Of a stretch of 64,000 nt of DNA, positions 34,005 to 51,994 are shown piece after piece. Origin of the DNA: an uncultured Gemmatimonadaceae bacterium (GTDB taxonomy: Bacteria; Gemmatimonadota; Gemmatimonadetes; Gemmatimonadales; Gemmatimonadaceae). The DNA is taken from contig CAWFQK010000004.1 of the NCBI GenBank assembly GCA_963817955.1, positions 576,001 through 640,000 of the forward strand. Direction: 5' to 3'. Position 1 is the first letter of the stretch, and every line of letters begins with the position of its first letter. The notes under the pieces were generated by a model. That model was not told the DNA's origin. It searched no databases and was given only the letters and a program-made list of their open reading frames with translations. The position numbers and the translations under genes were made by a program.

Positions 34005-35108
34005 TCACTCGGGCATTTGGTCCCTTCCCGCGGACGGGTCGTCCCCCCGCAAGAGTGCCTCGATCGCGCTTTCCCGGGCTGCGCGCTCAGCCACTTCATC
34101 CGCGACGCGCATTGCCGCCAGACGCTGCCGATCTCGCTGCCGACGCGCAATATAGAATGGCACGATCAGAACGAGCAGCAACAGACCGCCAATTGCCACG
34201 TTACTCACCAGGGCGAGCGCGCCGTACCGCCGCCGCGTATCGGCCCTCCAACGCGTCTCGAATCCGCTGAGCGTGAGCCCATACGTCGCGCGCATTGCGC
34301 GATCGAGGTCGCCTTCTCGCCGCCACGATTCGAAGAACCGTGACAACCCGCCATCGGGATCGAGCGACGCCAGTTCGACCACCGCGCGGTACGCGAGGGC
34401 ATACGCGTTCTCCGCCGTCGTGGAGCCACCGTTGAGCTGTACATCGAGCTCAGCGAACGTCGGCGACCCGCGCAACGCCAGCGCAATGTTCGCCGCCAGT
34501 GCATCCTCGCGACGCCATTCGCGCGCGGCATAGCTCGCGTAACCTTCATCGAACCAGCGTGGCGGCTGATCGCCGAGGTATTCGTGCAGCGCGAGGTGTG
34601 CGAGTTCGTGTCGGAAGACCTCGCTTGGATCGCCGGCATCCGCGCCGGCGCCGCGGCCCTGCATCACGATACGTCGCGAGTCGGGGAAGGTGATCGCCGC
34701 GCCCCATTCCGGGGCTTCGGGCCCCGCCCATTCGCGGAAACGGCGCGCATCGGGCGCGATCGCCAGCAGCACGTGTTCATGTGGCCGCGGCAGCCCGGGA
34801 AACGTATCGGTGCGCTGCGCCTGCTCGAGCAGCGACGTCGCCAGCACAGCTTCCGTGGGATAGAAGACGGCCGTGAACCGCCCACGATCGATGCGTTTGG
34901 GGGCATCGGCTTGGGACACGGCGCACGAAACACGGGACACGGGAAAAAGCAGCAGGAGTGTTGCGACCGTCGCAGCCAGCCACCGCGTGACGCACGACCT
35001 GCGGAGCAGGTGCCCTACGGTTCGCCCCCCGCCTCCACGGTCTTCAGAACCTCCGCGCACCGTTTTCCCCACGGGGTGAACTTGTTCGCCGCGAAACCGG
35101 CTCGCCAT
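34005..35108 (-). CDS. Peptidase MA-like (gluzincin) membrane protein; true start uncertain, probably near 35010
   Basis: FRHELAH (HExxH) and PRWFDEG, an N-terminal hydrophobic stretch and a C-terminal TM. Confidence 0.8.
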   Translation of the reverse strand: MASRFRGEQVHPVGKTVRGGSEDRGGGGRTVGHLLRRSCVTRWLAATVATLLLLFPVSRVSCAVSQADAPKRIDRGRFTAVFYPTEAVLATSLLEQAQRTDTFPGLPRPHEHVLLAIAPDARRFREWAGPEAPEWGAAITFPDSRRIVMQGRGAGADAGDPSEVFRHELAHLALHEYLGDQPPRWFDEGYASYAAREWRREDALAANIALALRGSPTFAELDVQLNGGSTTAENAYALAYRAVVELASLDPDGGLSRFFESWRREGDLDRAMRATYGLTLSGFETRWRADTRRRYGALALVSNVAIGGLLLLVLIVPFYIARRQRDRQRLAAMRVADEVAERAARESAIEALLRGDDPSAGRDQMPE

Positions 35109-35875
35109 GTCTCGATTGCCTCGGCCCGCTGCCCGTTGAACCAGTACGCGCGACCGAGCTCATAGTACGCCTCGATCAAGTTCGGCCCGAGCGCCAGCGT
35201 CTTCTGGAAGAAGGTCTGTGCATCCTCGAACATGTCACGCTCGAGATACACCAACCCGAGATAGAAGTGCGCATACAGCAGTGCCTTCTTATCATTGCCC
35301 AGCCTGATGGCGCGTGACAGGTGCTCGATCGCTTCGCCGAATATGCCTTTCTTGAGACAGATGTAACCCACGTTGATGCGGGCGAGCGCATTCTGCGGCT
35401 CCCGCACGAGCACTTTCTGAAAATTGAGCAGTGCGTCGTCGAACTTGTCCTGCAGCATCTGCGCCCAGCCCAGCAGTGATTCCGCCTGCGGATCGTTCGG
35501 CGCAAGCTCCAGCGCCTTCATCAGGGCCTGCTCTGCGCCGGCATGGTCGCCGAGCGAAATCTTGCTCCATCCCTTCTCAATGAACGTCGAGGCGCCAATG
35601 TGGTCGGCGTGCACCACGGGCTTTTCACCAATGAACGCGGGCGCGAGCGATGGCTGCGCGCCTTTCACGCCTTTCACGCTTTTCCACGTCTCGACGAGCT
35701 GCAGCACTTCTGCTTTGAGCACGACGAGATCCGTGAGCTCCTGCTCGACGCTCTTGAACAGCACGCCGATATCGGTCTTCAGCGCACTGAGGTCGGCTGC
35801 GGCGGCAGGTGAGGCGAGGCGGACGCGGAGCTCGTCACGGCGCACCCGCAGGGCATCCACCAGCCGCTCAGCCAC
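35015..35875 (-). CDS. Coiled-coil plus TPR protein
   Basis: GTG start overlaps the cheW stop. N-terminal helical segment followed by ~5 TPRs (LGWAQMLQDKFDDALLNFQKVLVREP etc.). Confidence 0.85.
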   Translation of the reverse strand: MAERLVDALRVRRDELRVRLASPAAAADLSALKTDIGVLFKSVEQELTDLVVLKAEVLQLVETWKSVKGVKGAQPSLAPAFIGEKPVVHADHIGASTFIEKGWSKISLGDHAGAEQALMKALELAPNDPQAESLLGWAQMLQDKFDDALLNFQKVLVREPQNALARINVGYICLKKGIFGEAIEHLSRAIRLGNDKKALLYAHFYLGLVYLERDMFEDAQTFFQKTLALGPNLIEAYYELGRAYWFNGQRAEAIETWRAGFAANKFTPWGKRCAEVLKTVEAGGEP

Positions 35876-36353
35876 GAACAGTAACCTCGGCGGCTCGCAC
35901 GGTGCGCTCGAAGACGATGCGATCGGCGGTGGACAGCACACGGTCAACGTCGAGAATCACCACGAGCTGGTCGCCCGTTTTCACGATGCCGCGAACGAAC
36001 TCGGAAGCAAGGCCGCGGAAGAGAGCCGGCGGCGGCGAGACGCTCGTCGCTGGCACCGCGGCCACTTCCAGCACGGCATCGACGATCGCACCGACGCAGC
36101 CATCCGCGGTGTTCAGGACCAGGATGCGCGTGGAGGACGTGACCGGCGTCTCGGGCAGCTCCATGCGTCGACGCATATCGACGGCAGGGATCACCGCGCC
36201 ACGGTGCTCGAACACGCCTGCGATCCACGCAGGCAGATCGGGCACGTTGCTTGGCGCTGCGTAGCGCAGCACCCGATCCACCGCAAAGATGTCGGCGGCG
36301 AACCGGTCCAGCCCCAAGCGGAAGGTGACGAGCTTCACGACGTCGGTCTTCAT
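35868..36353 (-). CDS. cheW: Chemotaxis coupling protein CheW
   Basis: LVTFRLG, GVFEHRGAVIPAVDMRRR, GAIVDAV and LVVILDVDRV. Confidence 0.92.
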   Translation of the reverse strand: MKTDVVKLVTFRLGLDRFAADIFAVDRVLRYAAPSNVPDLPAWIAGVFEHRGAVIPAVDMRRRMELPETPVTSSTRILVLNTADGCVGAIVDAVLEVAAVPATSVSPPPALFRGLASEFVRGIVKTGDQLVVILDVDRVLSTADRIVFERTVRAAEVTVRG

Positions 36354-36811
36354 GCGATCTCTCCTGGCCCTTCACCCGTCAAAACGGACACGGCCGCCAC
36401 CGCCAGCAACGCGTCCGCGTTGAGCACCGCGATCAATTCTGCTCCACGACGGACGACGCCCGCCAGCATTCCATCCGACGACTGATTGCCCGGCACGGCG
36501 AGCAGCTCCCGGGCCTCGACAGTGATTGCGTCCTGCACATCGTCGACGGCGAAGCCGGCTCGCCGTTCATCGCGTGCGAATAGCAGCAGCACCCCATCCG
36601 CCCGTCCGCCGACGTTCAGGAGCGACCGGGGGTCATATATGGTGACCAGCGCGCCGCGAATAGCCGCGATACCGAGGACCGATGGCGGCGCGTCGGGGAC
36701 AGGATGCATCGCCGGCAAGTCCATCACTTCTTCCACGGATGCCAACTCGACGGCAAAGCGCTCGCGTCCCAATCGAAAGACGAGAAGCCGCGCCGCACCG
36801 TCACGGAACAT
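36350..36811 (-). CDS. cheW: CheW-domain protein (divergent)
   Basis: LLVFRLGRERFA, VPDAPPSVLGIAAIRG and GFAVDDV. Start at ATG 36811. Confidence 0.85.
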   Translation of the reverse strand: MFRDGAARLLVFRLGRERFAVELASVEEVMDLPAMHPVPDAPPSVLGIAAIRGALVTIYDPRSLLNVGGRADGVLLLFARDERRAGFAVDDVQDAITVEARELLAVPGNQSSDGMLAGVVRRGAELIAVLNADALLAVAAVSVLTGEGPGEIA

Positions 36812-37868
36812 GCCGCAGCGCCTCCACCATCTCGCTGATGACCGGGGCGATCTCGTGCAGCGGGGCGACGCGATCGGCGCCCGCATGCTGCAGCGCCATC
36901 TGCGGCATGCCGAAAATCGTCGCGGTGGCGCGATCCTGCACGATAGCCCGGCCTCCGGCTTCGCGGATCAAACGGGTCCCTTCGCTGCCGTCTCGCCCCA
37001 TGCCAGTGAGCACGACGGCCACCGTCGCCGCACCAAACACCTCCGCCGCAGAGCGGAACAATCGGTCGGCTGCGGGACGCACGCCCCAGATCGATGGCGA
37101 TGTATCGAGCACGATCGTCGGACCATCGGGGTCGCCGCGCACCCGCATGTGGTAGCCGCCGGGCGCCAAATAGACGTTGCCATGCACAACGGGCTCGCCG
37201 TCCTCGGCCTCGTGGATCCGGATCGGACTCAAGGTATCGAGCCGCTGGGCGAGACTCTTCGTGAACCCAGCCGGCATGTGTTGCACGATGAGCACCGCCG
37301 CGGGGAGTTCGCGCGGCAGATGGGGCATGATCGCCGCGAGCGCGCGCGGTCCGCCAGTCGATGACGCGATGACCACTGCGTGCGACGCGCGCGTGAGCGG
37401 ATCGATGCGCCGGACGCCCTCCAGCGAGGAACGCGCCGGCGTCTTCAGGCCGGCGAGGTTCGCCGCCGCCGCGCCGCGCAATGCGGCCACGAGACGATCG
37501 GCAATGAGTCCCACATCGAGGCTGATCGAGCCCGACGGCTTGAGCACGAAGTCCACCGCGCCCAGTTCGAGCGCCTTGAGCGTCGCCTCCTGCCCGCTGC
37601 GTGTCGTTCCGGCACTCAGCATGACCACCGCGCGCGGCGTTTCGCTCATGATATAGCCAAGCGCACTCAAACCGTCGAGTTCCGGCATGTCCACGTCGAG
37701 CGTGACAATATCTGGATCGAGCTCGTGAATCCGCTTGAGCGCGTCGAATCCGTTCCGCGCCGTACCCGCCACCACGAACTCTCCCGAGTCATCGACGATC
37801 TGCGAGGTCATGCGGCGCATGAACGCGCTATCGTCCACGACGAGGACACGCGGCTTGTCAGAGGACAC
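36801..37868 (-). CDS. cheB: Methylesterase CheB (REC plus CheB domain)
   Basis: VLVVDDSAFMR and TLDVDMP. Catalytic triad motifs SSTGGP, VQHMP and LTGMGRDG are intact. GTG start at 37868. Confidence 0.96.
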   Translation of the reverse strand: MSSDKPRVLVVDDSAFMRRMTSQIVDDSGEFVVAGTARNGFDALKRIHELDPDIVTLDVDMPELDGLSALGYIMSETPRAVVMLSAGTTRSGQEATLKALELGAVDFVLKPSGSISLDVGLIADRLVAALRGAAAANLAGLKTPARSSLEGVRRIDPLTRASHAVVIASSTGGPRALAAIMPHLPRELPAAVLIVQHMPAGFTKSLAQRLDTLSPIRIHEAEDGEPVVHGNVYLAPGGYHMRVRGDPDGPTIVLDTSPSIWGVRPAADRLFRSAAEVFGAATVAVVLTGMGRDGSEGTRLIREAGGRAIVQDRATATIFGMPQMALQHAGADRVAPLHEIAPVISEMVEALRHVP

Positions 37869-38349
37869 GCGATCCCCCGCGCAGCGAGCGCACTTCCACG
37901 CGGCCATCCGCTAGAAAGAGGTACACGCTGCGGCCGTAGTCGCTCCCGGTGTCCTCGGCCACGATCGGCAGGTTGGCGCCGGCGAGCACTTCGCGCACCG
38001 CAGTGACGTTCCGTTCCCCAATGTTCATGCCGCCCGCCGGAAGGACGTTGCCAAACATACTCGCGCCGCCGGCGATTCTCGCTCGAATGCGCCCGAGGCT
38101 GGCGCCGAGGTCCCGCATCTCGGCGAGCACCAGCGGAACCACCGTCTGTGGAAATTTCGCCGGATTGGATCGATCGCGCGACATGCTCTCGCTTGGCAGC
38201 AGCACGTGAGCCAGGGCGCCAACGCGCGCCACGGCGTCGTACAGAACAATCGCCACGCACGATCCGAGGCCGATCGTCGAGATCGTCCCGTCGGCGGCGA
38301 CGGCATAGTCGGCGACCTTCACGCGCCGCTCGACGGGAATGGCCGTCAT
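37858..38349 (-). CDS. cheD: Chemoreceptor glutamine deamidase CheD
   Basis: TIGLGSCVAIVLYD, AHVLLP, AGGASMF, IGERN and EDTG. Confidence 0.93.
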   Translation of the reverse strand: MTAIPVERRVKVADYAVAADGTISTIGLGSCVAIVLYDAVARVGALAHVLLPSESMSRDRSNPAKFPQTVVPLVLAEMRDLGASLGRIRARIAGGASMFGNVLPAGGMNIGERNVTAVREVLAGANLPIVAEDTGSDYGRSVYLFLADGRVEVRSLRGGSRVL

Positions 38350-39167
38350 AGGCGCCGAAAGATTCGTTGCCGCGCATCGACGGGCGCGAAGTGGGTGCGC
38401 GCACGTCCGAGCAGGGTCTCGACCTTGCCGAGCACGAGGAATCCGTCCGGCGCCAGCGCGTCGTAGAAAGTATTGAACAGCCGCTCCTGCGTATCCCGGT
38501 CGAAGTAAATCAACACGTTTCGGCACACGATGAGGTCATGCGGCCCCGGCGGCGGCGGCTCGCTGAGCAGATCGCGTCGCTCGAACCGCACCATGCTGCG
38601 AATGGCTGAGGATACGGCGAAGGGCGACGCGACCGCGAAGTACTCCTGTCGCAGATCGCCAGGCGTGTCGTCGAAGTCGCCTGGCTCGAATTGTCCGCGC
38701 CCAGCCGCGGCGAGACATTGCTGGTCGATGTCGGTTCCCACCACCCGCACGCGCCCAATCCGGGCGAGCGAATCGTTGAGGGCCGCGTACCGATGAAACA
38801 GAATGGCGAGCGAATACGGCTCGTCTCCCGACGAGCACCCCGCGCTCCACACGCGAATCGCCGGCTGCTCGCGGCGCCAGAGCGCGGGCACCACGTGCTC
38901 CGCCATCGCCGCGTAGGCATCCCAGTTTCGAAAGAGTTTCGTGACATTGATCGTCAACGCATCGAGCAGCCGGTCGTATTCTGCGGCGTCCCGATCGAGG
39001 AGTCGCGCGTACTCGTCGTAGGTGTGCACACCGCGCGCGCGCATGCGCACGGCAATCCGCCGGCGCAGACACTTCTCCTTGTACGACGCACAGCCGAAGC
39101 CGCGCTCCGCGGAGATCTTGTGCGTCAACTCCAAGAACCCAGCCTGCTCCTGCTCCTGCTCCGGCAT
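38346..39167 (-). CDS. cheR: Methyltransferase CheR
   Basis: LTINVTKLFRN, WSAGCSSGDEPYS, GTDID and CRNVLIYF. Confidence 0.95.
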   Translation of the reverse strand: MPEQEQEQAGFLELTHKISAERGFGCASYKEKCLRRRIAVRMRARGVHTYDEYARLLDRDAAEYDRLLDALTINVTKLFRNWDAYAAMAEHVVPALWRREQPAIRVWSAGCSSGDEPYSLAILFHRYAALNDSLARIGRVRVVGTDIDQQCLAAAGRGQFEPGDFDDTPGDLRQEYFAVASPFAVSSAIRSMVRFERRDLLSEPPPPGPHDLIVCRNVLIYFDRDTQERLFNTFYDALAPDGFLVLGKVETLLGRARTHFAPVDARQRIFRRL

Positions 39168-40786
39168 CAATACACCTGCCGAATCGATTCCAGATTCGTA
39201 CGCACGATTGCGTTGTTCGGATCGAGCTCGAGCGCCCGCTCCCAGCAGCGTAGCGCTTCATCGCGCTCCCGCCGCCGCAGGCGAATGTTGCCGAGCTTGA
39301 GATAGACGTCGGCCCCGAGATCCGGGTCCGCCTTCGTCGCGCGCAGGTACGACTCGAGGGCGTCGTCGTACCGGCCGCCGCGGTAGTGCAGGTCGCCCAG
39401 GTTCTTGTGGAGCTGCGGCATGCCGGGATCCTCATGGAGGCCGCGTTCGATGGTCTCACGCGCATTGTCGTAGGCCGTGCTGCGTTCGAGCGCCGCGGCG
39501 AGGTTGTTCCAGAGCGCCGCGACGTGCGGATGGGCCGACACGCCCTCTGTCAGCACGATGGCGGCGCGCGACGTGTCTCCGGCGAGCGCGGCCGCAAGCC
39601 CCATGTAGTGGTACCACGCCGCAGTCGGCGGACGGGTGCCGAACAGCGTCCGCGCCGACGCGAGCAGCGCGTCGGCCTCCGCGACATCGCCCGTCATGAG
39701 CGTCACCACACCGAGCGACGTCTGCACGCGCGGATCGGCCGAACCACCGCGCCGCGCGGCCTCCTCGAGCGCTGCACGCGCTTCCTCGTATCGATTGAGC
39801 CGCTCCAGCGCGTAGGCCAGGTTGTGGAACACCGCCATGTGCGCGCCCGGTTGCGCCGCCGCCTCGGAGAATGTGGCGGCCGCGTCTTCCCACTTCTGCT
39901 GGCGGGCCAGCACGAGACCGATGTAGAACCGCGCCACCGCGTCGAATCCGCGCAGATCGAGCACACGCCGGAATTCCCGCAACGCCTCATCGAGCATATT
40001 GGTCTTGTAGAACGCGATCCCGAGGTTGCGGTGTTCCTCGATGCGCCCTTCCGACGGCGCGGGAGCCGGCGGCGCCGTCTTGCCAATGCGATGGATGAAC
40101 CCCGTGGTGAGCAGGCCGTACAACGCCTTCCCGACCTCGAACTCCACGAGGCCTGACTCGTCGATGATTGCTTGCACGTCGCGCGTGCCGTCGACCAACT
40201 CGAGCACGGCACGCTGCTCGTCGGTGAGCGCTGTTTCGCTCGATAGGACCTTGGCGCGATCTATCTCGAAGACAATGTCGAACGTCGGAATCTTCTTCTC
40301 GACGAGACCCCACTCATCGACTCGCCGGGCACCCTCGAGCAGCAGCGACTCCGGATTGATCGATACGACATGGTCATGCTGATCCGGCGCGACGTCAGCC
40401 TCGAAATTGAATGTCCCCTGGTTCCAGGTGAACAGGAAGTACACCGCTTCCTGAATCTGCACATGGATGGCGTCGTGCAACTGCTGCAGACTGAGCGCGC
40501 CCTGCTCCACCAGCAACTCGCCAAGCCGCTTGTCGCGCCGGCGATCCTGCAGCGCCACACTGGCCTCCAACCGCGCCTGCGTGACGATGCCGCTCTTCAC
40601 CAGCATGTCGCCGAGTCGATCGCGCCGGTTCACGATGGAGGCGTAGCAGATGCGGCCCTTTTCGAAATAGACGTACCCAAAGCTGTTCCGGTGCGTGACG
40701 CTCAGGCACCCCGTCTTCTTCCCCATCGCCAGAAGCTGGAGAACGTCGGGAAGGCTCGCTTCCTTGAGGCTGCCGCGGATGGCCAT
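39167..40786 (-). CDS. DUF4388 (PATAN-like) protein with a tandem MshEN-type motif and a C-terminal TPR array
   Basis: GSLKEASLPDVLQLL...KTGCL...YFEKG...WNQGTFNF...LLLEGARRVDEW, two RLG..L...G motifs, then ~8 TPRs. ATG 40786 overlaps the upstream stop. Confidence 0.85.
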   Translation of the reverse strand: MAIRGSLKEASLPDVLQLLAMGKKTGCLSVTHRNSFGYVYFEKGRICYASIVNRRDRLGDMLVKSGIVTQARLEASVALQDRRRDKRLGELLVEQGALSLQQLHDAIHVQIQEAVYFLFTWNQGTFNFEADVAPDQHDHVVSINPESLLLEGARRVDEWGLVEKKIPTFDIVFEIDRAKVLSSETALTDEQRAVLELVDGTRDVQAIIDESGLVEFEVGKALYGLLTTGFIHRIGKTAPPAPAPSEGRIEEHRNLGIAFYKTNMLDEALREFRRVLDLRGFDAVARFYIGLVLARQQKWEDAAATFSEAAAQPGAHMAVFHNLAYALERLNRYEEARAALEEAARRGGSADPRVQTSLGVVTLMTGDVAEADALLASARTLFGTRPPTAAWYHYMGLAAALAGDTSRAAIVLTEGVSAHPHVAALWNNLAAALERSTAYDNARETIERGLHEDPGMPQLHKNLGDLHYRGGRYDDALESYLRATKADPDLGADVYLKLGNIRLRRRERDEALRCWERALELDPNNAIVRTNLESIRQVY

Positions 40787-42726
40787 CAGCGCAGATCCTC
40801 GATCAGGCGCGTGCCGGCGTCGGGCCACTGCCACAGAATCTTTTCGCCGTCGAGAAAGAACGTGTCGGCCGTCGTGCGCATTGCCGCGGCACGGGGCGCG
40901 TCGCCCTGCTCCGGTTCGAGCTCGGCACGAATGAACCCGATCGTCACCGGCACGGCCTTCACTTCGGCCGAGGCGACGATCCGGTTCGCGGCACCGATGA
41001 TCTCGCGCACGCTGGCAACCGGTCGGTCGGCAAGATAGTTCAGCATCTCGCCGGTGGGGTCGAGTCCCAGGTCCTTGAGGAATCGCGCAAAGAGCCGCTC
41101 GCGCAGCGACCGGTCGGGCGACTGCATCGGTACGACCAGGCCGCCCTCGAACCGCGAGCGCAGTCGTTCCTCGAGGCCCGACAACTCGCGTGGCGGTCGA
41201 TCGCTGGCGAAGACGAGCTGCTTGCCGTCGGCATACAGCGCGTTGAATACGTGAAACAGCTCTTCCTGCGTGCGTTCCTTGCCGGCCACGAACTGCACGT
41301 CATCGAGCAACAGCGCCGAGGCAGCGCGATATCGCGCCCGCCAACGATCCACTGTTCCCTCCTGCATCGCGGCGATCAGTTCGTCGATGAACAGCTGGGC
41401 GGGCACGCAGGCGACACTGCCGGTGCCCGCCGACGCTTGCACGAGTCCATTGCCGATCGCATTGAGGAGGTGGGTCTTGCCCACCCCGCTCGGCCCGTGA
41501 ATGAACAACGGATTGTACCGGAGTGCCGGGACGGCGACGATGGCGTCGGCGGCCCGCACGGCAAGCTGATTGCACGCCGCCACTTCGAATCCGGCGCGCG
41601 TGAAGGCGGCCGACGGTCCCGGCGGCGGCGTCGACGTGCGAAGCGCACGCTCGAGCAGTTGCCCGGCCTCCTCGAGCCGATCCGGGTCGTGAAAAGCATC
41701 GTGCTCGGCCAACGCGCGGTCGAGACCTGCCACCTGCTTTTCGAGATCACGCAGCTTCGAGACGCTTCCTTCGAATTCGCGCAGCACCGTCTCGACGCTC
41801 GTCGGCGGCGCAGGATCCTGGAGCATGCGTTCGAGCGCAGCGGCGCGATACCCCTCGCTGTTCCAGTAGGCGATCGCCTCCGTCAGGCGGGTTCTCCACT
41901 GCTCGAGATGCTGTGCGACGGCCGCCGACATATTCGAGAGGAAATTCGCGAACTCTCCGAGCGCCTGCGGTGGATTGGCGCGCGGGCGCTGCTCGGCGAG
42001 GTCGCCGAGGATGCCAATGACCGCGCCGGGGTCGATCTGTTCGCCGCCGAGCGTCTGGAACGCGATGATCCGATTGAGCGCGCCCTGCAGCTCGCGCACG
42101 TTCTTGAATTCCAGACGTCCCACTTCCTCGATGACGCCGGGCCGGAAGCGGACCCCGCGCTCCTCGCACTTGGCCTTGAGAATAGCCATGCGCGTTTCAT
42201 AATCGGGTGCCCCCATGTCGACGATCAGACCACCCGACAGCCGCGTGATCAGCCGCTCGTCCACGTCGCTGATCTCCGACGGCGGCCGGTCGCTGGTCAT
42301 CACGATCTGCTTGCCGGCGGCGGTGAGCGCGTTGAAGATGCGCAGCAACTGCGTCTGCGTCTCGCGATGGCCGGTCAAGAACTGCACGTCGTCGATCAGC
42401 AGCACGCCGATGCCGACATACCGGTTCTTGAACGGTTCTGCCTCGCCGGCCGCGATCGCCTCGTGCAACTCCGCCACGAAGTCGTCGAGCGTGACGAACG
42501 CGACGAGCAGTCCCGTGTGGCGCTGTGTCACGTGATTGCCGATCGCGCTCATCAGGTGCGTCTTGCCGAGCCCCGAACTGCTGTACATGAACAGCGGGTT
42601 GTACACGGCGCCCGGCGCGTCCGCCACCGCGCGCGCCGCGGCCACAGCGAGCCCGTTGGCCGAGCCGACGATGAAATTATCAAACCGGAGCTTCAGGTCT
42701 ACCGGCACGCGACGATTCCTCTCCAC
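40786..42726 (-). CDS. Tandem DnaA/Hda-family AAA+ ATPase lacking DnaA domains I and IV
   Basis: Two copies of the DnaA domain III signature. First: YNPLFMYSSSGLGKTHL, LLIDDVQF, SDRPP, RLITRLSGGL, NVRELQGA. Second: YNPLFIHGPSGVGKTHL, LLLDDVQF, SDRPP, RLRSRFEGGL, SVREIIGA. Confidence 0.9.
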   Translation of the reverse strand: MERNRRVPVDLKLRFDNFIVGSANGLAVAAARAVADAPGAVYNPLFMYSSSGLGKTHLMSAIGNHVTQRHTGLLVAFVTLDDFVAELHEAIAAGEAEPFKNRYVGIGVLLIDDVQFLTGHRETQTQLLRIFNALTAAGKQIVMTSDRPPSEISDVDERLITRLSGGLIVDMGAPDYETRMAILKAKCEERGVRFRPGVIEEVGRLEFKNVRELQGALNRIIAFQTLGGEQIDPGAVIGILGDLAEQRPRANPPQALGEFANFLSNMSAAVAQHLEQWRTRLTEAIAYWNSEGYRAAALERMLQDPAPPTSVETVLREFEGSVSKLRDLEKQVAGLDRALAEHDAFHDPDRLEEAGQLLERALRTSTPPPGPSAAFTRAGFEVAACNQLAVRAADAIVAVPALRYNPLFIHGPSGVGKTHLLNAIGNGLVQASAGTGSVACVPAQLFIDELIAAMQEGTVDRWRARYRAASALLLDDVQFVAGKERTQEELFHVFNALYADGKQLVFASDRPPRELSGLEERLRSRFEGGLVVPMQSPDRSLRERLFARFLKDLGLDPTGEMLNYLADRPVASVREIIGAANRIVASAEVKAVPVTIGFIRAELEPEQGDAPRAAAMRTTADTFFLDGEKILWQWPDAGTRLIEDLR

Positions 42727-45012: not shown

Positions 45013-45841
45013 CGGCGTGCGTCTCCAACACGCGCTGCAGCCGCGCGAGGGCATCGAGCGCATCCCGCGCTTCCGGCGAGCCCGGACCGTTCGGCGAGGC
45101 GCGGAGGAACTGTTCCACTGCCGTGCGTGCACTCGCCAACGCGCCGGTGACCATGCGCGCGGCCGACGTGAACATCGGCGTTTTCGGTGCGGGTTGCGCC
45201 GACTCCGGCAGGGCACGAGACGGGCAGCGCACGTCAACGATGCCAGTCGTCGCCAGACCGTAGGCGATCTTCGCAATCTCGAATTCGTCGCGGCCGAGCG
45301 CCGTGGCAATCGTGCGCACGTCACGCTCGCCGTCGATCATCGTCAGCACCTGCCATTCGTGCGGCAGCAAATCGAGCATGGCGCCCTGCCGGTCATGATC
45401 GACCTCCGCCAGTTCGGGGACGGCATCGACGTTCGGCACCACGTCGGCGATGCGCGACCATTCGTCAATGCGCCGAGCAGCCTCCATGAGGAGCGATTCC
45501 GTGGACACGGTGATCCCCGTGTTGGCCGGCATGTCGCTGCGCGCCCGTTCTTCGAACGAGAAGAAGCCTTCCCGCCAGGACATCAACTCGAACACGACGC
45601 TCTCCAGCTGCAAGCGCAGCTGCCGCTCCAGCTCCTTCCGCGAAATGGCGCCGGGTTCCGTGTGGGGGGGGGCTTTGCTGCGAATCGTCGCCTGAACCAC
45701 GCGTCCGCTGTCGAAATGCACCACGCCCTCGTCCTCGCGCAACGCAGAGTACACGCGGAGCATCCCCGTCTTCCGGCTCAGGTCGAGGAGCTGGAACACG
45801 TCGTGAATGCCGAGTTCGCGAAGGGGACCTTCAATGGCCAT
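45005..45841 (-). CDS. DUF4388 protein
   Basis: AIEGPLRELGIHDVFQLL...KTGML...HFDSG...WREGFFSF...LLMEAARRIDEW...VLTMIDG. Start at ATG 45841. Confidence 0.85.
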   Translation of the reverse strand: MAIEGPLRELGIHDVFQLLDLSRKTGMLRVYSALREDEGVVHFDSGRVVQATIRSKAPPHTEPGAISRKELERQLRLQLESVVFELMSWREGFFSFEERARSDMPANTGITVSTESLLMEAARRIDEWSRIADVVPNVDAVPELAEVDHDRQGAMLDLLPHEWQVLTMIDGERDVRTIATALGRDEFEIAKIAYGLATTGIVDVRCPSRALPESAQPAPKTPMFTSAARMVTGALASARTAVEQFLRASPNGPGSPEARDALDALARLQRVLETHADG

Positions 45842-45846: not shown

Positions 45847-48540
45847 CTAGTCCTTCCGTCGCGGACCGAGGATGCGTTCCAGATCCGTCACCGTCCGGAT
45901 CTCCCGGCGCGCGCGACGCGCCCACTCCGACGTCGGCCCTAACTCCACGACGCGTTGCCACCGCTCGACCGCGCCGCGGTATCGGCGCTGTTCCGCCAGG
46001 ATGCTGCCTTCATGGAACAGCGCGCCGATATGCGACGGGTCGAAGCGCAGGACGCGAGCGAACGCCTGCACGGCATCGCGTTTGCGCCCGAGCGCGAGCA
46101 GAGTTTCCCCGAGTGCGATCAGCGCATCGAAGTGATAGGGATCGCGCTGCAGCAAATCGATCAGCTGCTCCAGCGCTTCAGCGGGGCGTCCAAGGCGCCG
46201 CCGCAACGTCGCGAGCTCCAGTGTCGCCTCGGCATACGTCGGTACGGCGTCGAGCGCGGCGACCAGCTCCTGTTCGGCTTCGCGGTTCTGCCCCTTTGCC
46301 TGTAACAAGCGCGCGAGCTGGAAACGCACCACCGCGAAATCCTGGTCGAGTTGCAGCGCATGGCGATATGCCGAGATCGCGCCTTCGTTATCGCCGAGGG
46401 ATCGGGCAATGTCGCCCATCTTCTGCTGCACGTCGGCGCGCATGGGCGCGGCGCGCCGCGCCGCATCGAGCACCGACAGCGCCGCCGCGGGATCGCCTGC
46501 TTCCGCGCAGGTGGTCGCCATGAGCATGAGCACATCCACGTCATCGGGACAATGGGTGAGCAGCTGCTGGGCGAGGGGACGGGCCTCCGCGGCGCGTCCG
46601 AGGCGGACGAGTGACGAGGCTTCCCCGATCGCGGCAGCGCGCCTTTCGGGTTCGAGCCGTAAGGCTTCGCGATACCGCTCGAGGGCCTCGCCGAACAGCC
46701 CTTGCTTGGCAAAGACGTCTCCAAGGAGCGTGAGCCCGTCGGCGCGCGCACCTCCGCGAGACATGGCGCGGCTGATCTCGGCCGAGGCGCGGTCGTACAA
46801 TCCTTTGGACAGGTAATCCGCCGCCATCGCGAACGGCGACGCATCCGTGCCGCGCGACGGCGTCACCGGCGACGGAAAGGCGACCGGCCTCAGCTCGGTG
46901 AAGAGCGTGTCGAGCGACTGGGCGTCGAAGCTGAAATCGGCGATCGACGCGTCGGCCAACCGCTCGCCGCCGAAATCCGGTCGAATCGAGAGGTCGGGGT
47001 CCTCGTACTCGACGTCCATGGCCAACTCGAACTTCTGCGGGACGTAATAGGGATCGAGCTCCAGCGCACGCTTGGTTTCGCGTAACGCGCCTTCAAAGTC
47101 ACCGAGGTTCGAGAGCGTGAAGCTCATGTTGTAGTGTGCTTCCGCAACGTCCGGCTTCGACTGGATCGACCGCGCGAACGCGTTCCGCGCATCATCGTAC
47201 TTGTGCAGCTCCGAGAGGACGAGCCCAATGCCGTTCCACGCGACGTGCTGTTCCGGCGCGTTCGTCAGCGCCCGGCGGTACGCATCGAGCGCGGCGGGAA
47301 ATCGTTTGCCGCGTGCAAGGAGGAGCGCCATGTTGAGGTGCGCCTTGACAAAGCTGGGCTGTTCGTCGAGCGCGGTGCGGAAGGCGCCGATGGCCTCGTC
47401 CACCGCACCGCGGTGATACAGCACGACGCCCAGGTTGTTGTGCGCAATGGCGTAGGTGGGCTCGGCCTGCAGGGCGTTCCGGTAGCTGGCCTCCGCGTCG
47501 GGGAAGCACCCATCCTGGTGCAGCGCCACGCCGCGCTCGTTCCACAGCTTGGGACTCGACGGCTGCCGCTCCAGCAACTCGTTGTACAGCGCGAGCGCCT
47601 CGTTCGGCTGTCGCATGAGCAGATGCATCTCGGCCATGGCCTGCAACACGAGATCGCGCTCCTCGCCCCGTTCCAGCGCGACACGGTATTCGCGCATCGC
47701 CTCGGGGAAATACCCGTTGCTGCGGAACGCGAGACCGAGATTGTAGCGCGCGAGTTGGCCTTCGCCCGACACCTGGAGCTCGCGCCTGGCTGGCGCGGGC
47801 CCATCCTCCGGTCGCGCCGCCCGCTGTTGGTCGATCGCCAAATTCGCGTGGGCGCGCGACAACGTGGGATTGAGCGCAATGGCGCGGCGGGTCACGGCCT
47901 GCGCGTCTTCATGCCGTCCCATGTCGCCCAGGACGAACCCCATCAGGTAGAGCGCGTCGTGGTTCTCGGGATTGCGCTCGATCGCCCGTTCCAGGGCCCG
48001 TAGTGCTTCGTCGTTCAGTCCGCGATGATAGAGCACTTCACCGAGCGAGAACTGCAGCAACGAGCTGTCGGAGTCGAGCGTGAGCGCGCGCTCGAGCAGC
48101 TGCTGCGCGCGTTCGATGTCGCCAGTCTCCTTCTCGGCCATCGCGAGCTGCAAGAGCGCGCCGACATCCGACGGGGTGACCTGCAGCAGCGCGCGGAATT
48201 CCTCCGCCGCATCGTCCTGCTGGCCGAGCAGCGCATAGGTGCGACCGAGCTCCCAGCGCGCATCACGATCCTCGGGGCGCAGCCGGAGGCGCTCTTTGAG
48301 TTCCGGAATACGAGTATCGTAATAGCCCGTGTTGAAGTAGGCGATTTCGAGATTCCGTTGCGCGACCTGCATCTTCTGGTCGAGGTCCAGCGCCTTCATG
48401 AACGCGGCGACGGCCTCCCCGTACAGCCCCTTGTTGTAGTACAGCACCCCCAGATTGTTGTGCGCCCCGGCATCCGACGGATCGATCCGCCGGGCAAACG
48501 AACGTAAGACGTCGCGATCGCGTTCCGAGGTGAGTGCCAC
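45847..48540 (-). CDS. Large TPR-repeat protein (897 aa)
   Basis: Many canonical TPRs (AHNNLGVLYYNKG, AHNNLGVVLYHRG, AHYNMSFTLSNLG) and no signal peptide. Confidence 0.9.
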   Translation of the reverse strand: MALTSERDRDVLRSFARRIDPSDAGAHNNLGVLYYNKGLYGEAVAAFMKALDLDQKMQVAQRNLEIAYFNTGYYDTRIPELKERLRLRPEDRDARWELGRTYALLGQQDDAAEEFRALLQVTPSDVGALLQLAMAEKETGDIERAQQLLERALTLDSDSSLLQFSLGEVLYHRGLNDEALRALERAIERNPENHDALYLMGFVLGDMGRHEDAQAVTRRAIALNPTLSRAHANLAIDQQRAARPEDGPAPARRELQVSGEGQLARYNLGLAFRSNGYFPEAMREYRVALERGEERDLVLQAMAEMHLLMRQPNEALALYNELLERQPSSPKLWNERGVALHQDGCFPDAEASYRNALQAEPTYAIAHNNLGVVLYHRGAVDEAIGAFRTALDEQPSFVKAHLNMALLLARGKRFPAALDAYRRALTNAPEQHVAWNGIGLVLSELHKYDDARNAFARSIQSKPDVAEAHYNMSFTLSNLGDFEGALRETKRALELDPYYVPQKFELAMDVEYEDPDLSIRPDFGGERLADASIADFSFDAQSLDTLFTELRPVAFPSPVTPSRGTDASPFAMAADYLSKGLYDRASAEISRAMSRGGARADGLTLLGDVFAKQGLFGEALERYREALRLEPERRAAAIGEASSLVRLGRAAEARPLAQQLLTHCPDDVDVLMLMATTCAEAGDPAAALSVLDAARRAAPMRADVQQKMGDIARSLGDNEGAISAYRHALQLDQDFAVVRFQLARLLQAKGQNREAEQELVAALDAVPTYAEATLELATLRRRLGRPAEALEQLIDLLQRDPYHFDALIALGETLLALGRKRDAVQAFARVLRFDPSHIGALFHEGSILAEQRRYRGAVERWQRVVELGPTSEWARRARREIRTVTDLERILGPRRKD

Positions 48541-48576
48541 GGGTGAATGCTGGGTACGGGTCGCCGGGGCGAACGA

Positions 48577-49194
48577 TCAGGCCACGCGCACGGCTTTGAG
48601 AATCGCCTGCAAGGAGGCCGAATCCGGCAGCAGCAGGAAGAAGCCGTGGAGCCGTTCGCCGATCTCATCCATCAGGAATTCACTTTCGACACAGAACACA
48701 TAATCCTTGTCGCTGCCGAACTGGAGATACGCCGTCGTGAGCACCGCCGTCGACATGTCGATCGCCAGACTGGGCGGCGACGGCAGCAGCATCATGCCCA
48801 TGAAGTCGCTCAGCGCATTCATGTACGCCGAGCTGAGAATGTTGCCGGCTTCCTTGATTGCCGACCGCTCCATCTCCGAGAACTCGTCGCCGGTACTCGG
48901 CCGGCGGAGCAGCATGCCCGCGAGGTGAATGGCGGTGCGCCGTGGAAACACGAGCAGCGTGCGCCCCGTGAGATCGCCCATCATGTGCATGAGCACCGCC
49001 GCCACCGCCTCATCGGGCTCCCCGATCTGCGGCGGGACGTCCTCGAGCCGCGACACGTTGATCCTGGGCACACTGATCATGATCGTCTCGCCGATCATCT
49101 GCGACAGCGCCGTCGCCGCATGCCCGGCGCCGATATTCGCCACCTCGCGCAGCGCGTCCAGTTGGATGGCTTTCAGCGAGCGAAGATCTTCCAT
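48577..49194 (-). CDS. cheC: CheY-P phosphatase CheC
   Basis: Two ExxN sites: LDALREVANIGAGHAATALS and SAIKEAGNILSSAYMNALS. Confidence 0.95.
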   Translation of the reverse strand: MEDLRSLKAIQLDALREVANIGAGHAATALSQMIGETIMISVPRINVSRLEDVPPQIGEPDEAVAAVLMHMMGDLTGRTLLVFPRRTAIHLAGMLLRRPSTGDEFSEMERSAIKEAGNILSSAYMNALSDFMGMMLLPSPPSLAIDMSTAVLTTAYLQFGSDKDYVFCVESEFLMDEIGERLHGFFLLLPDSASLQAILKAVRVA

Positions 49195-49200
49195 GGTTCC

Positions 49201-51126
49201 TCAGAGCAGACTACTGACGTCAACGATGAGCGACGGAGTTCCGTCGCTGAGGAGTGTGGCACCAGCGAACACCCGCGGCCCGTCACGCACCGCGTCGTAC
49301 TGCTTGACGACGATCTCTTCCTGCCCCGTGATCTCGTCGATCGCCAACGCGGCGCGACGGTCGCCGACATCGAGCACCGCGGCATGTTCGAACGCGATCT
49401 CACTCGGCGCCTGGTACGGTGGCATGCCGACGATCGATCGCAGGCGCAGCAGCGGCAACAGCTCGTCGCGCGCCAGCACCACCTCGCGCCCCTGCACCGT
49501 CCGCACGATCTCCGGCACGAGCTCGATCGTTTCGCTCACATGAGCCAGTGGAATGGCGTACGTCTCGTCGTCGACCCGCGCGAGGAGCGCCCGCACGATG
49601 GCCAGCGTCAATGGCAGTCGCAGGATCGTCGTCGTACCCTGCCCCGGCACCGAACGGATGTCCATGGCACCGCCGAGCGCGCGCACGCGCGTGTAGACGG
49701 CGTCCACACCGACGCCGCGGCCGGAGAGCCGGGTGATCTTCTCGGCGGTCGAGAATCCCGGACGCGCAAGCAGGCGGAGCAACTCGTCTTCCGTGAGCTC
49801 GGTCTTGTTCGCATCGACCAATCCATCACGTTTGGCGCGCGCGAGCACCCGCGCACGATCGATGCCCTTGCCATCGTCGCTCACCTTGATGACGATCGCC
49901 GAGCGATCACGCGCCGCGCTGAGCACGAGCCGGCCCACGGGCGGCTTGCCCGCGGCGACGCGGGCCTCCGGCGTCTCGAAGCCGTGGTCGATCGAGTTGC
50001 GCAACAGGTGTACGATGGAGTCGCCGATCTCGTCGAGCATCGACCGATCGAGCTCGATGCCTTTGCCGTCGACCTCGAGTTCAATGTGCTTGCCGACGCT
50101 GCGCGATGCATCGCGGACGACGCGTGGAAATCGGTCGAACACCTGCGCGACCGGCACCATGCGGCTCGCCGTAATCTCGTCACGCAACTCGGTGATCAAT
50201 CGCGACGACTGGTTCACAGTTTCCTCGAGCGCGACATCGCCCAGCTCGCCCGCGAGCTGCGTCAATCTGCCGCGCGCGATCACCAATTCACCAACCAGAT
50301 TCATGAGCGTGTCCAGGCGGCGCACGTCGATGCGCACGTGACGCGCCTTGCCGTTCGTCCGCTCCTGGTCCAACGGCAGTCCTTCCGGAGGCGTTGCGCT
50401 CGGGTCCATCGCGGAAACCGGCGGCGCCTGCCGCTCCGGCTGGTCTTCGCCCACCTGGACGTCGGCCACATCGCCCGCGCCGCGCGCGACCCCTTCGACC
50501 TGCGCGGAGTCCAGGGAGGTGACCAGTCGCAGGGCGAACTCTGCGCCGAACGACTCGGCCTGCAGATCGTTGAGCGAGGGTACCGTTCCCGTCACGTCGC
50601 CGATCTTCTTCAGTGATTGGACGATGATGAACGCCCGCACGCCGCGGAGTGGCGTGCTGGGTGCGAGCCGCACGCGCACGAGCGTGCCGGGACCTTCCGG
50701 AGCCGCCACACTCCACCCGCCGTTCAGCCGCTGCGGGTTCGGCAGTCCCAACGCGCGGAGCTGTGCCACGAGCTCGGTGTCGATCACCTCACCTTCACGT
50801 CCCGTGACGGCGGCTTCCACCGCGTGCTCCAGCGCGTCGGAGGCGCGAAACAGCACGTCCACGATATCGGGATCGATCGCCAGATCGCCGCGGCGCACGC
50901 GGTCGAGCAGCGTCTCGAGTTCGTGCGCGAGCTCGGCGACGATGGCGTACCCCATCGTCGCGCCCATCCCCTTGATGGTGTGGACGGCGCGAAAAATTAC
51001 GGCGATCGCAGGCGCCGCCTCGGGGCCCCCGGCATCGCGCTCGAGCTTGAGCAGCGCCTGATGGACCGCCGCGACGTTCTCCCGGCTTTCCGTGAGGAAT
51101 AGTTCCGCGTACTGGAAGCTATCCAC
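49201..51126 (-). CDS. cheA: Chemotaxis histidine kinase CheA (P1-P5)
   Basis: FRAVHTIKG (HPt), a P2 segment, LMNLVGELVI, HLLRNSIDHG, DDGKG, SGRGVGVD and LPLTLAI. GTG start at 51126. Confidence 0.96.
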   Translation of the reverse strand: MDSFQYAELFLTESRENVAAVHQALLKLERDAGGPEAAPAIAVIFRAVHTIKGMGATMGYAIVAELAHELETLLDRVRRGDLAIDPDIVDVLFRASDALEHAVEAAVTGREGEVIDTELVAQLRALGLPNPQRLNGGWSVAAPEGPGTLVRVRLAPSTPLRGVRAFIIVQSLKKIGDVTGTVPSLNDLQAESFGAEFALRLVTSLDSAQVEGVARGAGDVADVQVGEDQPERQAPPVSAMDPSATPPEGLPLDQERTNGKARHVRIDVRRLDTLMNLVGELVIARGRLTQLAGELGDVALEETVNQSSRLITELRDEITASRMVPVAQVFDRFPRVVRDASRSVGKHIELEVDGKGIELDRSMLDEIGDSIVHLLRNSIDHGFETPEARVAAGKPPVGRLVLSAARDRSAIVIKVSDDGKGIDRARVLARAKRDGLVDANKTELTEDELLRLLARPGFSTAEKITRLSGRGVGVDAVYTRVRALGGAMDIRSVPGQGTTTILRLPLTLAIVRALLARVDDETYAIPLAHVSETIELVPEIVRTVQGREVVLARDELLPLLRLRSIVGMPPYQAPSEIAFEHAAVLDVGDRRAALAIDEITGQEEIVVKQYDAVRDGPRVFAGATLLSDGTPSLIVDVSSLL

Positions 51127-51149
51127 GAGATCCGGGCATCGCGCTGCGG

Positions 51150-51512
51150 TTATCCGAGCACACGCTGCACGGCCTCGAGCACGCGGCTCGGCTGGAACGG
51201 CTTGACGACGAAGTCTTTCGCTCCCGCCTGAATGGCCTCGACGACGAGCGCCTGCTGGCCCATCGCGCTGCACATGAGGATCTTGGCCTCCGGGTCGAGT
51301 TTGCAGATCTCACGCACCGCGTCGATGCCGCCCATATCGGGCATCACGATATCCATCGTCACGAGATCGGGCCGGAGCTGCTGATACCGCTCCACGGCCT
51401 CCACCCCCGTCTCCGCCTCGCCGACGATTTCGAACCCGGCCCGCGTGAGGATATCGCCGACCATGGTGCGCATGAAGATCGCGTCGTCGCAGATGAGAAC
51501 AGTCTGACTCAA
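51150..51512 (-). CDS. cheY: Single-domain response regulator CheY
   Basis: VLICDDAIFMR, TMDIVMP, CSAMGQ and DFVVKPF. TTG start after a GGAGG ribosome-binding site. Confidence 0.95.
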   Translation of the reverse strand: MSQTVLICDDAIFMRTMVGDILTRAGFEIVGEAETGVEAVERYQQLRPDLVTMDIVMPDMGGIDAVREICKLDPEAKILMCSAMGQQALVVEAIQAGAKDFVVKPFQPSRVLEAVQRVLG

Positions 51513-51538
51513 GAAATGCCTCCAGGAAGTACGAAGTA

Positions 51539-51994
51539 CTACGAGAGCAGGACCTGTGAGATAAGGGCATCGACATCGAGAATGACAACGGCTGCCTCAT
51601 CCAACGTTGCTACGCCGCGCACGATGGGGCCACGCGACCGCGACATGTCGTCGCGCTCATCGATCGCCAACTCGCGAACGTCGACCACCTCGTCGACCAC
51701 CATCCCCACCAGCCGCTCGCGGTAGCGCACGAGCAGGATCGACCCGTCGGCAATGGGCGCGCGCGACGCATCGAGGCGCACTCCCAGGTCGAGCACCGTG
51801 ATGATCGTGCCACGCATGTTGATCAGACCACGCACATGAGCCGGCGCACCAGGGAGCCGCGTCATGCGGCGCAGGGGAATGATCTCCTGAGCCGCCGTGA
51901 GGTCGCACCCATAGACTGTCGCTCCCACGCGGAACAGCAGCGTGGGAGGGAGCGCCACTTCACGGATCGACGTGGTAGAATCCAAAGAATTCAA
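51539..51994 (-). CDS. cheW: CheW
   Basis: TRLPGAPAHVRGLINMRGTIITVLDL and GMVVDEV. Start overlaps the end of rluD. Confidence 0.9.
   Translation of the reverse strand: MNSLDSTTSIREVALPPTLLFRVGATVYGCDLTAAQEIIPLRRMTRLPGAPAHVRGLINMRGTIITVLDLGVRLDASRAPIADGSILLVRYRERLVGMVVDEVVDVRELAIDERDDMSRSRGPIVRGVATLDEAAVVILDVDALISQVLLS

Follow-up and report, generated by a model that had tools for sequence, protein, structure and literature searches.

What is understood about the control of cell polarity by the GTPase MglA comes almost entirely from Myxococcus. There, the genes for the partners of MglA are scattered over the genome, and the partners were found one by one. In M. xanthus MglA recruits SgmX, a protein with 14 tetratricopeptide repeats (TPRs), and SgmX brings PilB to the leading pole; in addition, SgmX co-occurs with two PATAN proteins (PMC11580455, in the sections of that paper used here). 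Related elements have been described in cyanobacteria. According to a preprint (bioRxiv 10.1101/2021.06.11.447907), regulators of the PATAN-REC type, which are of chemosensory origin, have PATAN as their output domain. [quoted passage not shown] Furthermore, a survey from 2014 (Wuichet and Sogaard-Andersen) had noted PATAN genes in the vicinity of some MglA genes of groups 1 and 5 (PMC4316618). Here, an array of 18 minus-strand genes (35015-51994) is described that combines chemosensory (che) genes with genes for MglA, Roadblock, PATAN and TPR proteins and a tandem ATPase of the DnaA type. It lies in a 64-kb stretch of the genome of an uncultured Gemmatimonadaceae bacterium (G000:C4:576001-640000; genome of 4.5 Mb in 9 contigs), and this whole stretch is called the window below. 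Its close homologues bear Gemmatimonadaceae and Gemmatimonadetes names.

With moderate confidence, the array is interpreted as a self-contained polarity module of the MglA/MglB type, around which a complete chemosensory pathway has been wired in one operon in most Gemmatimonadota, with a non-flagellar output. A whole candidate pathway, i.e., receptor-coupled kinase, CheY, GTPase, GTPase-activating protein (GAP)-like proteins, TPR effector, PATAN adaptors and a cyclic di-GMP (c-di-GMP) input, would be encoded in one operon of a widespread, little-studied soil phylum.

Gene order, conservation and natural variants

The preliminary description of the window had proposed 18 co-oriented genes in the order cheW-cheY-cheA-cheC, a block of eight genes, and cheR-cheD-cheB-cheW-cheW-TPR. 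Pfam searches verified this order, and all 18 open reading frames carried the expected domains. The junctions had been described as overlapping or very short, and this was also the case: at 10 of the 17 internal junctions the genes overlap by 1-11 nt, and at the other 7 they are separated by 4-36 nt, when the nearest plausible start codons are assumed, which was the analysts' choice. The spacing to the neighbouring genes is just as close, both to rluD upstream (+1 or -35 nt) and to a peptidase gene downstream. Therefore, the sequence does not define where the transcription unit begins and ends, and the unit may be longer than the 18 genes. A scan for promoters and terminators yielded 3 and 9 sites, versus 2.0 and 10.1 expected from shuffled sequences, and, thus, nothing above the shuffles.

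Two samples were used to describe the distribution of the array. The first, the phylum sample, comprises 151 evenly spread genomes with a completeness of at least 85%, and its tallies for the ATPase, PilM and PF02895 include the unpublished genomes G079 and G118, on which no conclusion depends alone. For the second, the locus sample, one genome per species was scanned with an alignment of divergent members of the tandem ATPase family, and the best 80 of 161 relatives were taken; these 80 loci were picked by likeness to the query and are hence a biased sample. The tandem ATPase was present in all 31 genus- and order-level relatives, each of which has a separate true DnaA, and in 96 of the 151 phylum genomes. 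The carriers are concentrated in two families (21/31 and 68/72), and the ATPase was not found in several other families of the 151-genome sample (0/7, 0/11, and others).

The gene order was highly conserved. The whole string with both flanks was kept in 7/7 long order-level loci. At the 52 loci with at least 9.3 kb of upstream DNA, rluD, cheY, cheA, cheC, the first two genes of the block (encoding the TPR protein TPR897 and the PATAN protein PATAN1), the three Roadblock genes and the MglA gene were present without exception, and the upstream cheW was found at 51 of them. In the other direction, the gene for the PATAN-TPR protein, the terminal TPR gene and the peptidase gene were present at all 51 loci with at least 6.2 kb of downstream DNA; cheD was found at 48 of these, cheR at 47, cheB at 45, at least one cheW at 40 and two cheW genes at 13. 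Thus, the claim that the eight-gene block lies inside the che set holds for the window, and the genes stay together in the relatives: in the neighbourhood survey the block was located beside cheY-cheA-cheC at 52/52 Gemmatimonadota loci with enough upstream DNA.

The best 80 loci all carry names of the type Gemmatimonad*, except for one Solirubrobacterales bin and one Acidimicrobiia bin. An identical contig of 4070 nt is filed in a Solirubrobacterales bin and in a Gemmatimonadales bin, and one locus is in the bin named Acidimicrobiia (L048, L049 and L052). These names probably reflect binning errors, not transfer, and among the best 80 of 161 relatives no occurrence outside Gemmatimonadota was confirmed.

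Several relatives lack parts of the array and represent natural knock-outs (without che genes, without the ATPase or without Roadblock genes), which already split the system into modules. The first examples are two loci of genus g49 (L187 and L193, genomes G130 and G133), which contain no che genes at all. Here rluD is followed directly by the TPR897 gene, and the PATAN-TPR gene is followed by the terminal TPR gene. A third locus (L190, G114, genus g36) has the same layout. In a genome-wide count with PF02895, no CheA match was found in these three genomes; PF02895 misses divergent CheA proteins that were found by tblastn at L188, L189, L192 and L194, and it was not used for a cross-table of che genes and block. 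Next, L191 (G091) lacks cheA and has cheC, cheR and cheB only as fragments. L189 (G061) is without the upstream cheW and without the cheR-cheD-cheB-cheW set, and its cheA match covers only residues 1-505 of 641. At L188 and L194 (G059 and G116, genus g32) TPR897 is cut to its C-terminal part, and cheR, cheD and cheB are missing. L185 (G058, genus g12) has kept che genes and block, and is without the ATPase, cheD and the terminal TPR gene. The last examples are L181 and L182 (G089 and G124, single-contig genomes of genus g16), in which the PATAN1 gene is directly followed by the MglA gene, and neither a Roadblock gene nor cheR was detected in the cluster. The PATAN1 protein of g16 is longer (342 amino acids), and its gene abuts mglA (region L181 8965-10736, and likewise in L182).

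The terminal TPR gene stays with the block in the che-less loci L187, L190 and L193. The variants indicate that the eight-gene block together with the terminal TPR gene is a stable unit, and that the two che halves form one accessory layer, which is gained or lost together. The che-less loci and the gene fragments of L191 look like an ongoing loss of the chemosensory layer. The view of the block as an insert in a che frame has to be reversed: the polarity block is autonomous, and the che genes surround it as an optional layer of input, as they are missing at L187, L190 and L193 and decaying at L191.

Chemosensory genes and the proteins of the block

The array starts with the first of the three cheW genes (51539..51994, on the minus strand like all further genes of the array; Pfam CheW, E 4e-30), the start codon of which is either TTG at 51994 or GTG at 51958. 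The next gene, cheY (51150..51512; Response_reg, E 9.9e-31), encodes a single-domain response regulator with the phospho-acceptor aspartate and its partner residues. It is 78-90% identical in relatives and among the best-conserved genes of the array. It is followed by cheA (49201..51126), one of two such genes in this bacterium, the product of which has, according to Pfam, a single Hpt, a P2 domain, dimerisation, HATPase and CheW domains, and no receiver. The last gene before the block is cheC (48577..49194; Pfam CheC, E 2.6e-22), encoding a CheY-P phosphatase. On the other side of the block lie the methyltransferase gene cheR (38346..39170; Pfam CheR, E 8.7e-48), cheD (37858..38349; Pfam CheD, E 1.6e-28), cheB (36801..37868; CheB_methylest, E 1.5e-63, and Response_reg), which encodes a methylesterase with a receiver domain, the second and third cheW genes (36350..36811, E 5.4e-25, and 35868..36353, E 1.3e-32; both Pfam CheW), and the gene for the terminal TPR protein of about 286 amino acids (35015..35875; Pfam TPR).

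The presence of CheC, of CheD and of a CheA with P2 agrees with the Bacillus/Thermotoga/archaeal type that had been assigned earlier; the best NCBIfam models were those for haloarchaeal CheA and CheY and for Thermotogales CheC, all with scores below the cut-offs (for CheC 174 bits versus 250 bits). The hallmarks of the Pil-Chp (Tfp) class were not found, i.e., there is neither a CheA of the ChpA type, which has multiple Hpt domains and a C-terminal receiver, nor a PilG/PilH pair. The array does not belong to the PatA type either, as neither of its two PATAN proteins has a Response_reg match and CheY is encoded separately.

The genome contains a second CheA gene on contig C7, which is located beside flhA, two genes for methyl-accepting chemotaxis proteins (MCPs) and its own cheY, cheW, cheR and cheB. 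This is the flagellar set. The genome has 7-8 MCP genes, none of which lies in the window. One of them is an orphan gene on the same contig as the array (G000:C4:1703128-1704460). It has a cheW-like gene as its neighbour, a receiver gene is close by, and it is a candidate receptor unit for either CheA. The pilB-like, pilT-like and pilC genes are together on contig C5, and pilM is on C4.

No flagellar or pilus genes were found in the 64-kb window, as the preliminary description had stated, and its proposal of a non-flagellar output was also supported by the phylum sample. FlhA was present in 40 and PilM in 143 of the 151 genomes. Among the 96 genomes with the ATPase, 23 had FlhA and 73 had not, while PilM was found in 94. 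In two genera the cluster was present in 7/7 and 11/11 genomes, and FlhA in 0/7 and 0/11. In four genomes (G020, G021, G026 and G068) the CheA of the cluster is the only H-kinase_dim match, and 2-6 MCP genes are located elsewhere; FlhA had no match in G020, G021 and G068, and G026 was outside the FlhA sample. Given the absence of FlhA from 73 of 96 carriers, the pathway has a non-flagellar function in most of them, and in the source genome it is the other CheA that is located beside flhA, on another contig. Thus, most Gemmatimonadota keep a chemosensory pathway despite the absence of flagella.

The central gene of the block encodes MglA (42731..43336). Group-1 MglA proteins are characterized by TVPGQ in G3 in place of DxxGQ, and by an intrinsic arginine finger beside the conserved G2 threonine (PMC4316618). 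Both features are present in the Ras-like GTPase of the array, which contains TVPGQ and has Arg-Thr in the switch-I region. Its similarity to M. xanthus MglA is high (5ymx, residues 1-199 aligned, E 3.6e-75), and a Thermus protein was matched with E 1.3e-65. Directly upstream is the gene for an MglB-like Roadblock protein (43356..43826), the presumed GAP of MglA, which was matched by phmmer to M. xanthus MglB (6h5b_B, E 3.3e-10). Its Pfam Robl_LC7 score of 23.8 bits is barely above the cut-off, and the NCBIfam model for Thermus MglB yielded 22 bits versus a cut-off of 200. The next Roadblock/LC7 protein, Roadblock-2, is encoded at 43823..44173 (Robl_LC7, E 5.8e-9). The third has an N-terminal TPR part (Pfam TPR) and a C-terminal Roadblock/LC7 domain (44170..45012). 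In this case the Robl_LC7 score was below the Pfam cut-off (16.9 versus 23 bits), and the Roadblock assignment is supported by an hhalign comparison with the profile of the neighbouring Roadblock-2 (probability 86%, E 4.6e-6). The Roadblock proteins may have GAP and guanine nucleotide exchange factor (GEF) roles. The first gene of the block encodes TPR897, an all-TPR protein of 897 amino acids (45847..48540; Pfam TPR families), which may act as an effector or scaffold of MglA in the manner of SgmX.

PATAN1 (45005..45841; Pfam DUF4388, E 2.8e-26) consists of a PATAN domain, a winged-helix-like domain and a helical tail. Its AlphaFold2 (AF2) model had a predicted local distance difference test (pLDDT) value of 76. 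VIA-align matched only residues 129-208, which are winged-helix-like (Z 8.4-8.9), and the helical tail (with middling Z), and barely covered the PATAN residues 1-128. Foldseek found no match of the PATAN1 fold in the PDB at E <=0.001. PATAN1 of the source genome is without the two-repeat alpha-helical insert that is common to most orthologues.

The second PATAN protein, PATAN-TPR (39167..40786; Pfam DUF4388, E 8.4e-39, and TPR), contains a PATAN domain with an inserted motif of the MshE type, a winged-helix-like region and a TPR domain. The insert (residues 57-110) matched the NCBIfam model NF053729 ("cyclic di-GMP-binding domain, MshE-related") over its full 53 positions with 45.8 bits, versus a cut-off of 38. 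The described MshEN motif comprises two 24-residue repeats RLGxx(L/V/I)(L/V/I)xxG(L/V/I)(L/V/I)xxxxLxxxLxxQ, separated by a 5-residue spacer (PMC5013675). Both repeats of PATAN-TPR have kept the Arg, Leu, Gly, Gly, Leu and Gln residues, each has Val or Ile at the position of one Leu, and 6 residues separate the two. The tandem motif of key residues was present in 54 of 74 orthologues, and 41 of the 74 have Gly at position 10 of both repeats. PATAN-TPR is therefore a putative c-di-GMP-binding protein.

The seventh gene of the block encodes the tandem ATPase (40786..42726), which was matched twice by Pfam Bac_DnaA. The AF2 model, based on a 34-row alignment, had a pLDDT of 88.4 and a predicted template modelling score (pTM) of 0.51. 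In the model two AAA+ modules (residues 12-244 and 387-603) are connected by a helical linker (260-365) and followed by a disordered stretch and a short conserved tail. The best Foldseek match was domain III of B. subtilis DnaA (8bv3_A; E 5.5e-22, template modelling score 0.94, 43% identity). The two halves share 42% of their residues with each other and about 40% with the DnaA of the genome. Domain III of DnaA is therefore present twice, and domains I and IV are absent, as only Bac_DnaA and general AAA families were matched. Identity with Hda was considered and rejected: TIGR03420 yielded 166 bits versus a cut-off of 194.8, the protein is tandem and not a single module, and Hda in the PDB was matched only with E 1.2e-6.

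In an alignment of 69 orthologues the Walker A lysine was conserved throughout, in module 1 as well as in module 2, and Walker B was found in 67-69 sequences. The box VII arginine was conserved in 60/69 sequences in module 1 and in 69/69 in module 2, and the sensor II arginine in 66/69 and 68/69, respectively; both nucleotide sites are thus intact. The conserved C-terminal tail (residues 621-646) contains the four invariant residues E628, K629, W634 and P635 (69/69). A search of 1.84 billion representatives revealed a family of two-module proteins of about 570-700 amino acids, with identities down to 31%, the named members of which are from Gemmatimonadota. The linker was conserved in an alignment of 20 full-length members, and the tail motif was present in all but one of them (P0181). 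Shorter family members without the lid of module 2 have nevertheless kept the tail. In a scan of metagenomes with the low-GC member P0167, the matches listed were all single-domain genes of true DnaA. Two giant proteins of the public collection (P0186 with 1990 and P0190 with 1876 amino acids) contain AAA+ stretches resembling DnaA, which were matched to the tandem ATPase with E values of about 1e-88 to 1e-90. In public records the family is annotated as "DnaA" and has no described function; the array provides it with a concrete predicted interface.

The ATPase ends in an acidic, invariant and disordered tail, and the stop codon of its gene is overlapped by the PATAN-TPR gene. For these reasons this pair was chosen for complex prediction, which was performed with ATPase residues 366-646 and full-length PATAN-TPR, using 69-row alignments of each from the same loci. 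The prediction score was 0.74, and the best of three controls reached 0.00. Of 157 solved complexes, 116 attained this level, as did 2 of 215 mismatched pairs; these counts apply only roughly, since custom alignments were used for the present pair. The runs shared at least 72% of the contacts, and the pLDDT of the partner was at least 79. In the predicted interface ATPase residues 621-645 lie in the concave TPR groove of PATAN-TPR (residues 283-494), and the groove contacts H321, N322, R353, N427, N428, E434, Q458, N462 and D465 are invariant or nearly so. The model supports binding of the ATPase tail to PATAN-TPR.

Proposed mechanism and alternative explanations

The interpretation as an MglA/MglB-type polarity module with a chemosensory input leads to the following model. 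CheA and the three CheW proteins would be organised in arrays with MCPs encoded elsewhere, and CheA would phosphorylate the single CheY. Adaptation would be of the Bacillus/Thermotoga style and involve CheR, CheB, CheD and CheC. CheY-P would then act on the polarity block, most likely via a PATAN protein, because PATAN and receiver are fused in the cyanobacterial PatA-type regulators; a Roadblock protein would be the alternative target. This assignment of the CheY target is made by analogy and is provisional. The block would set the position of MglA-GTP, MglB and the two further Roadblock proteins would regulate the GTPase, and TPR897 and the PATAN proteins would serve as effectors or scaffolds. 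PATAN-TPR could add a c-di-GMP input through its MshE-type insert.

The ATPase would be tethered by its tail in the groove of PATAN-TPR, and ATP-dependent oligomerisation in the style of DnaA might assemble, time or reset the scaffold, a role that is proposed tentatively. A more specific version is doubtful and is put forward as a speculation: the ATPase would be a new polarity component that has kept the ATP-dependent self-assembly of DnaA into an open spiral, has its DNA recognition swapped for a tail that plugs into a c-di-GMP-sensing PATAN-TPR, and sets the timing or memory of the MglA switch by ATP-driven cycles of filaments or oligomers. As it can still present interfaces of the DnaA type, it might in this version also link polarity to the state of replication initiation.

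As output, MglA-GTP together with TPR897 and the PATAN proteins would license the extension of type IVa pili (PilB/PilC) at one pole. Pili are proposed as output, and a PATAN protein as the target of CheY-P, on the basis of the PixE-PilB/PilC and MglA-SgmX-PilB links mentioned above; by this analogy, type IV pili are the most likely output.

Several observations weigh against this interpretation or parts of it. PilM was also present in 49 of 55 genomes without the ATPase, and its near-universal occurrence in the phylum means that pili are permitted as output, not indicated. Moreover, no pil genes were found near the operon in any locus. A second mglB-mglA pair is located outside the window (G000:C4:956349-957471). 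The MglA of this pair has 51% identity to the operon MglA and carries an insertion (about 225 amino acids aligned). The Pfam model MshEN/T2SSE_N (PF05157) did not match PATAN-TPR at E values up to 10. The prediction for tail and TPR groove may partly mirror the many solved TPR-peptide complexes, and PATAN-TPR was the only one of the five TPR proteins of this region that was modelled as a partner. The g16 loci without Roadblock genes and L185 without the ATPase indicate that neither component is indispensable. Finally, the flanks are conserved as well (lspA-rluD on one side; peptidase gene, TPR gene and dcw cluster on the other), so that gene order alone overstates the functional coupling and leaves room for a role in cell division.

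This last point leads to the first alternative explanation, which is a role in polarity of the division site or of growth, i.e., budding or asymmetric division, or in the coupling of replication and polarity. The division or growth machinery would be positioned by MglA and the scaffolds, and the ATPase would sense or cap either the nucleoid or DnaA oligomers. The array is preceded on the same strand by ileS, a dksA-type gene, lspA and rluD, and is followed by an MA-type peptidase gene and a gene for a TPR protein of 682 amino acids (TPR682; 31813-35108, minus strand). A complete division and cell-wall (dcw) cluster adjoins this downstream flank on the same strand (13808-31196), comprising mraW, ftsI, murE, murF, mraY, murD, ftsW, murG, murC, ftsQ, ftsA, ftsZ and an M23 peptidase gene. 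Accordingly, the operon is directly upstream of the dcw genes from mraW to ftsZ, and this neighbourhood is kept (the peptidase gene at 51/51 and the TPR682 gene at 49/51 loci). The peptidase gene and the TPR682 gene are as syntenic as the operon and may belong to the unit. In the remainder of the window a 601-amino-acid open reading frame (9381-11186) and two small ones (1702-2463) have coding-like GC content at third codon positions and no Pfam match.

In line with a link to replication, the ATPase modules are 40-43% identical to domain III of true DnaA and have kept the box VII arginine finger of DnaA-DnaA interfaces. For Gemmatimonas, binary fission with occasional budding is described in the part of PMC7844134 used here. 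However, the conserved neighbourhood also includes the unrelated genes lspA and rluD, so that the adjacency to dcw may be historical, and the ATPase is without the DnaA domains I and IV. In addition, the experimental links established for MglA, PATAN and long TPR effectors are with pili and gliding and not with division. A division role is therefore regarded as unlikely, albeit as the strongest of the alternatives.

The second alternative is that the block serves to place or segregate the chemoreceptor array itself, or that it drives another surface behaviour such as gliding or polysaccharide secretion. Other che operons encode nucleotide-driven positioning ATPases, such as the ParA-like PpfA and ParC, and the tandem ATPase would have their role. 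The three CheW genes and the absence of an MCP gene from the operon fit to array positioning. Gliding is also controlled by MglA in M. xanthus (PMC4316618). However, the block persists in the che-less loci L187, L190 and L193, and, thus, the placing of a che array cannot be its sole job. This explanation is somewhat less probable still than a division role.

The last alternative, that the che genes, in two half-sets, and a polarity block unrelated to them form no single system and merely share a syntenic, co-directional region, could draw on housekeeping flanks that are as syntenic as the che genes and on the loss of che genes independently of the block, but it is very improbable in view of the 10 overlaps among 17 junctions (including both che/block borders on the 3' side), the joint loss of both che halves at L187, L190 and L193, and the fact that the cluster CheA is the sole CheA in four non-flagellated genomes and needs a non-flagellar output.

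Comparison with known systems

The preliminary description had regarded the combination as undescribed. In the full-text literature no published description of an operon with che genes, MglA and a DnaA-like ATPase was found, most subscription journals being outside the coverage, and no paper was found that treats MglA, MglB, DnaA and CheA together. This part of the claim stands, with one restriction: Table S2 of the 2014 survey lists "PATAN>MglA>-PATAN>" for Gemmatimonas aurantiaca GAU_1409, without Che terms (PMC4316618) and without the ATPase. The layout of the g16 loci matches this entry, so that a part of the block had been noted before. Gemmatimonas isolates contain a reduced version of the operon.

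The MglA/MglB-type polarity module with its chemosensory input can be compared first with Frz-MglA/MglB(/MglC/RomR) of M. xanthus. Common to both are a Che-type pathway upstream of a group-1 MglA, an MglB-like Roadblock partner and extra Roadblock paralogues. The MglA proteins are closely related, and in both cases a very long TPR protein (SgmX in M. xanthus) and PATAN proteins are associated. In contrast to M. xanthus, where mglA is not near the genes of its partners (PMC4316618), all genes are in one operon in Gemmatimonadota. The CheA of the operon differs from that of Frz in that it has P2 and no fusion to a receiver, and CheC and CheD are present. A RomR-type gene was not seen in the operon, and no search of the genome for RomR, RomX or RomY was made. 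Furthermore, the operon adds the tandem DnaA-like ATPase and the PATAN-TPR protein with the c-di-GMP motif, and the che layer is dispensable in some lineages.

The next example is the cyanobacterial Tax/Pix type (PatA-type, PATAN-REC), which also combines a chemosensory pathway with PATAN and has a two-repeat alpha-helical insert in the PATAN domain. In contrast to Tax/Pix, PATAN and receiver are separate proteins here, PATAN is fused to winged-helix-like and TPR parts, and MglA/MglB and an AAA+ ATPase are added.

At the level of single proteins, each half of the ATPase resembles DnaA and Hda, as it is an AAA+ module of the DnaA domain III type with conserved Walker, box VII and sensor II residues. 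Unlike DnaA and Hda, it has two modules per chain, a conserved helical linker, no domain I or IV and a conserved C-terminal peptide, and the true DnaA is encoded separately. Likewise, the insert of PATAN-TPR shares with the MshEN domain of MshE and PilB the tandem 24-residue motif with a short spacer and a score above the cut-off of the NCBIfam model. It differs from MshEN in being inserted in a PATAN domain and not located at the N-terminus of a secretion ATPase, in a spacer of 6 instead of 5 residues, and in having Val or Ile in place of one Leu per repeat.

Taken together, the operon resembles the Frz pathway acting on MglA/MglB, combined with elements of the cyanobacterial PATAN systems, and it is a member of neither.

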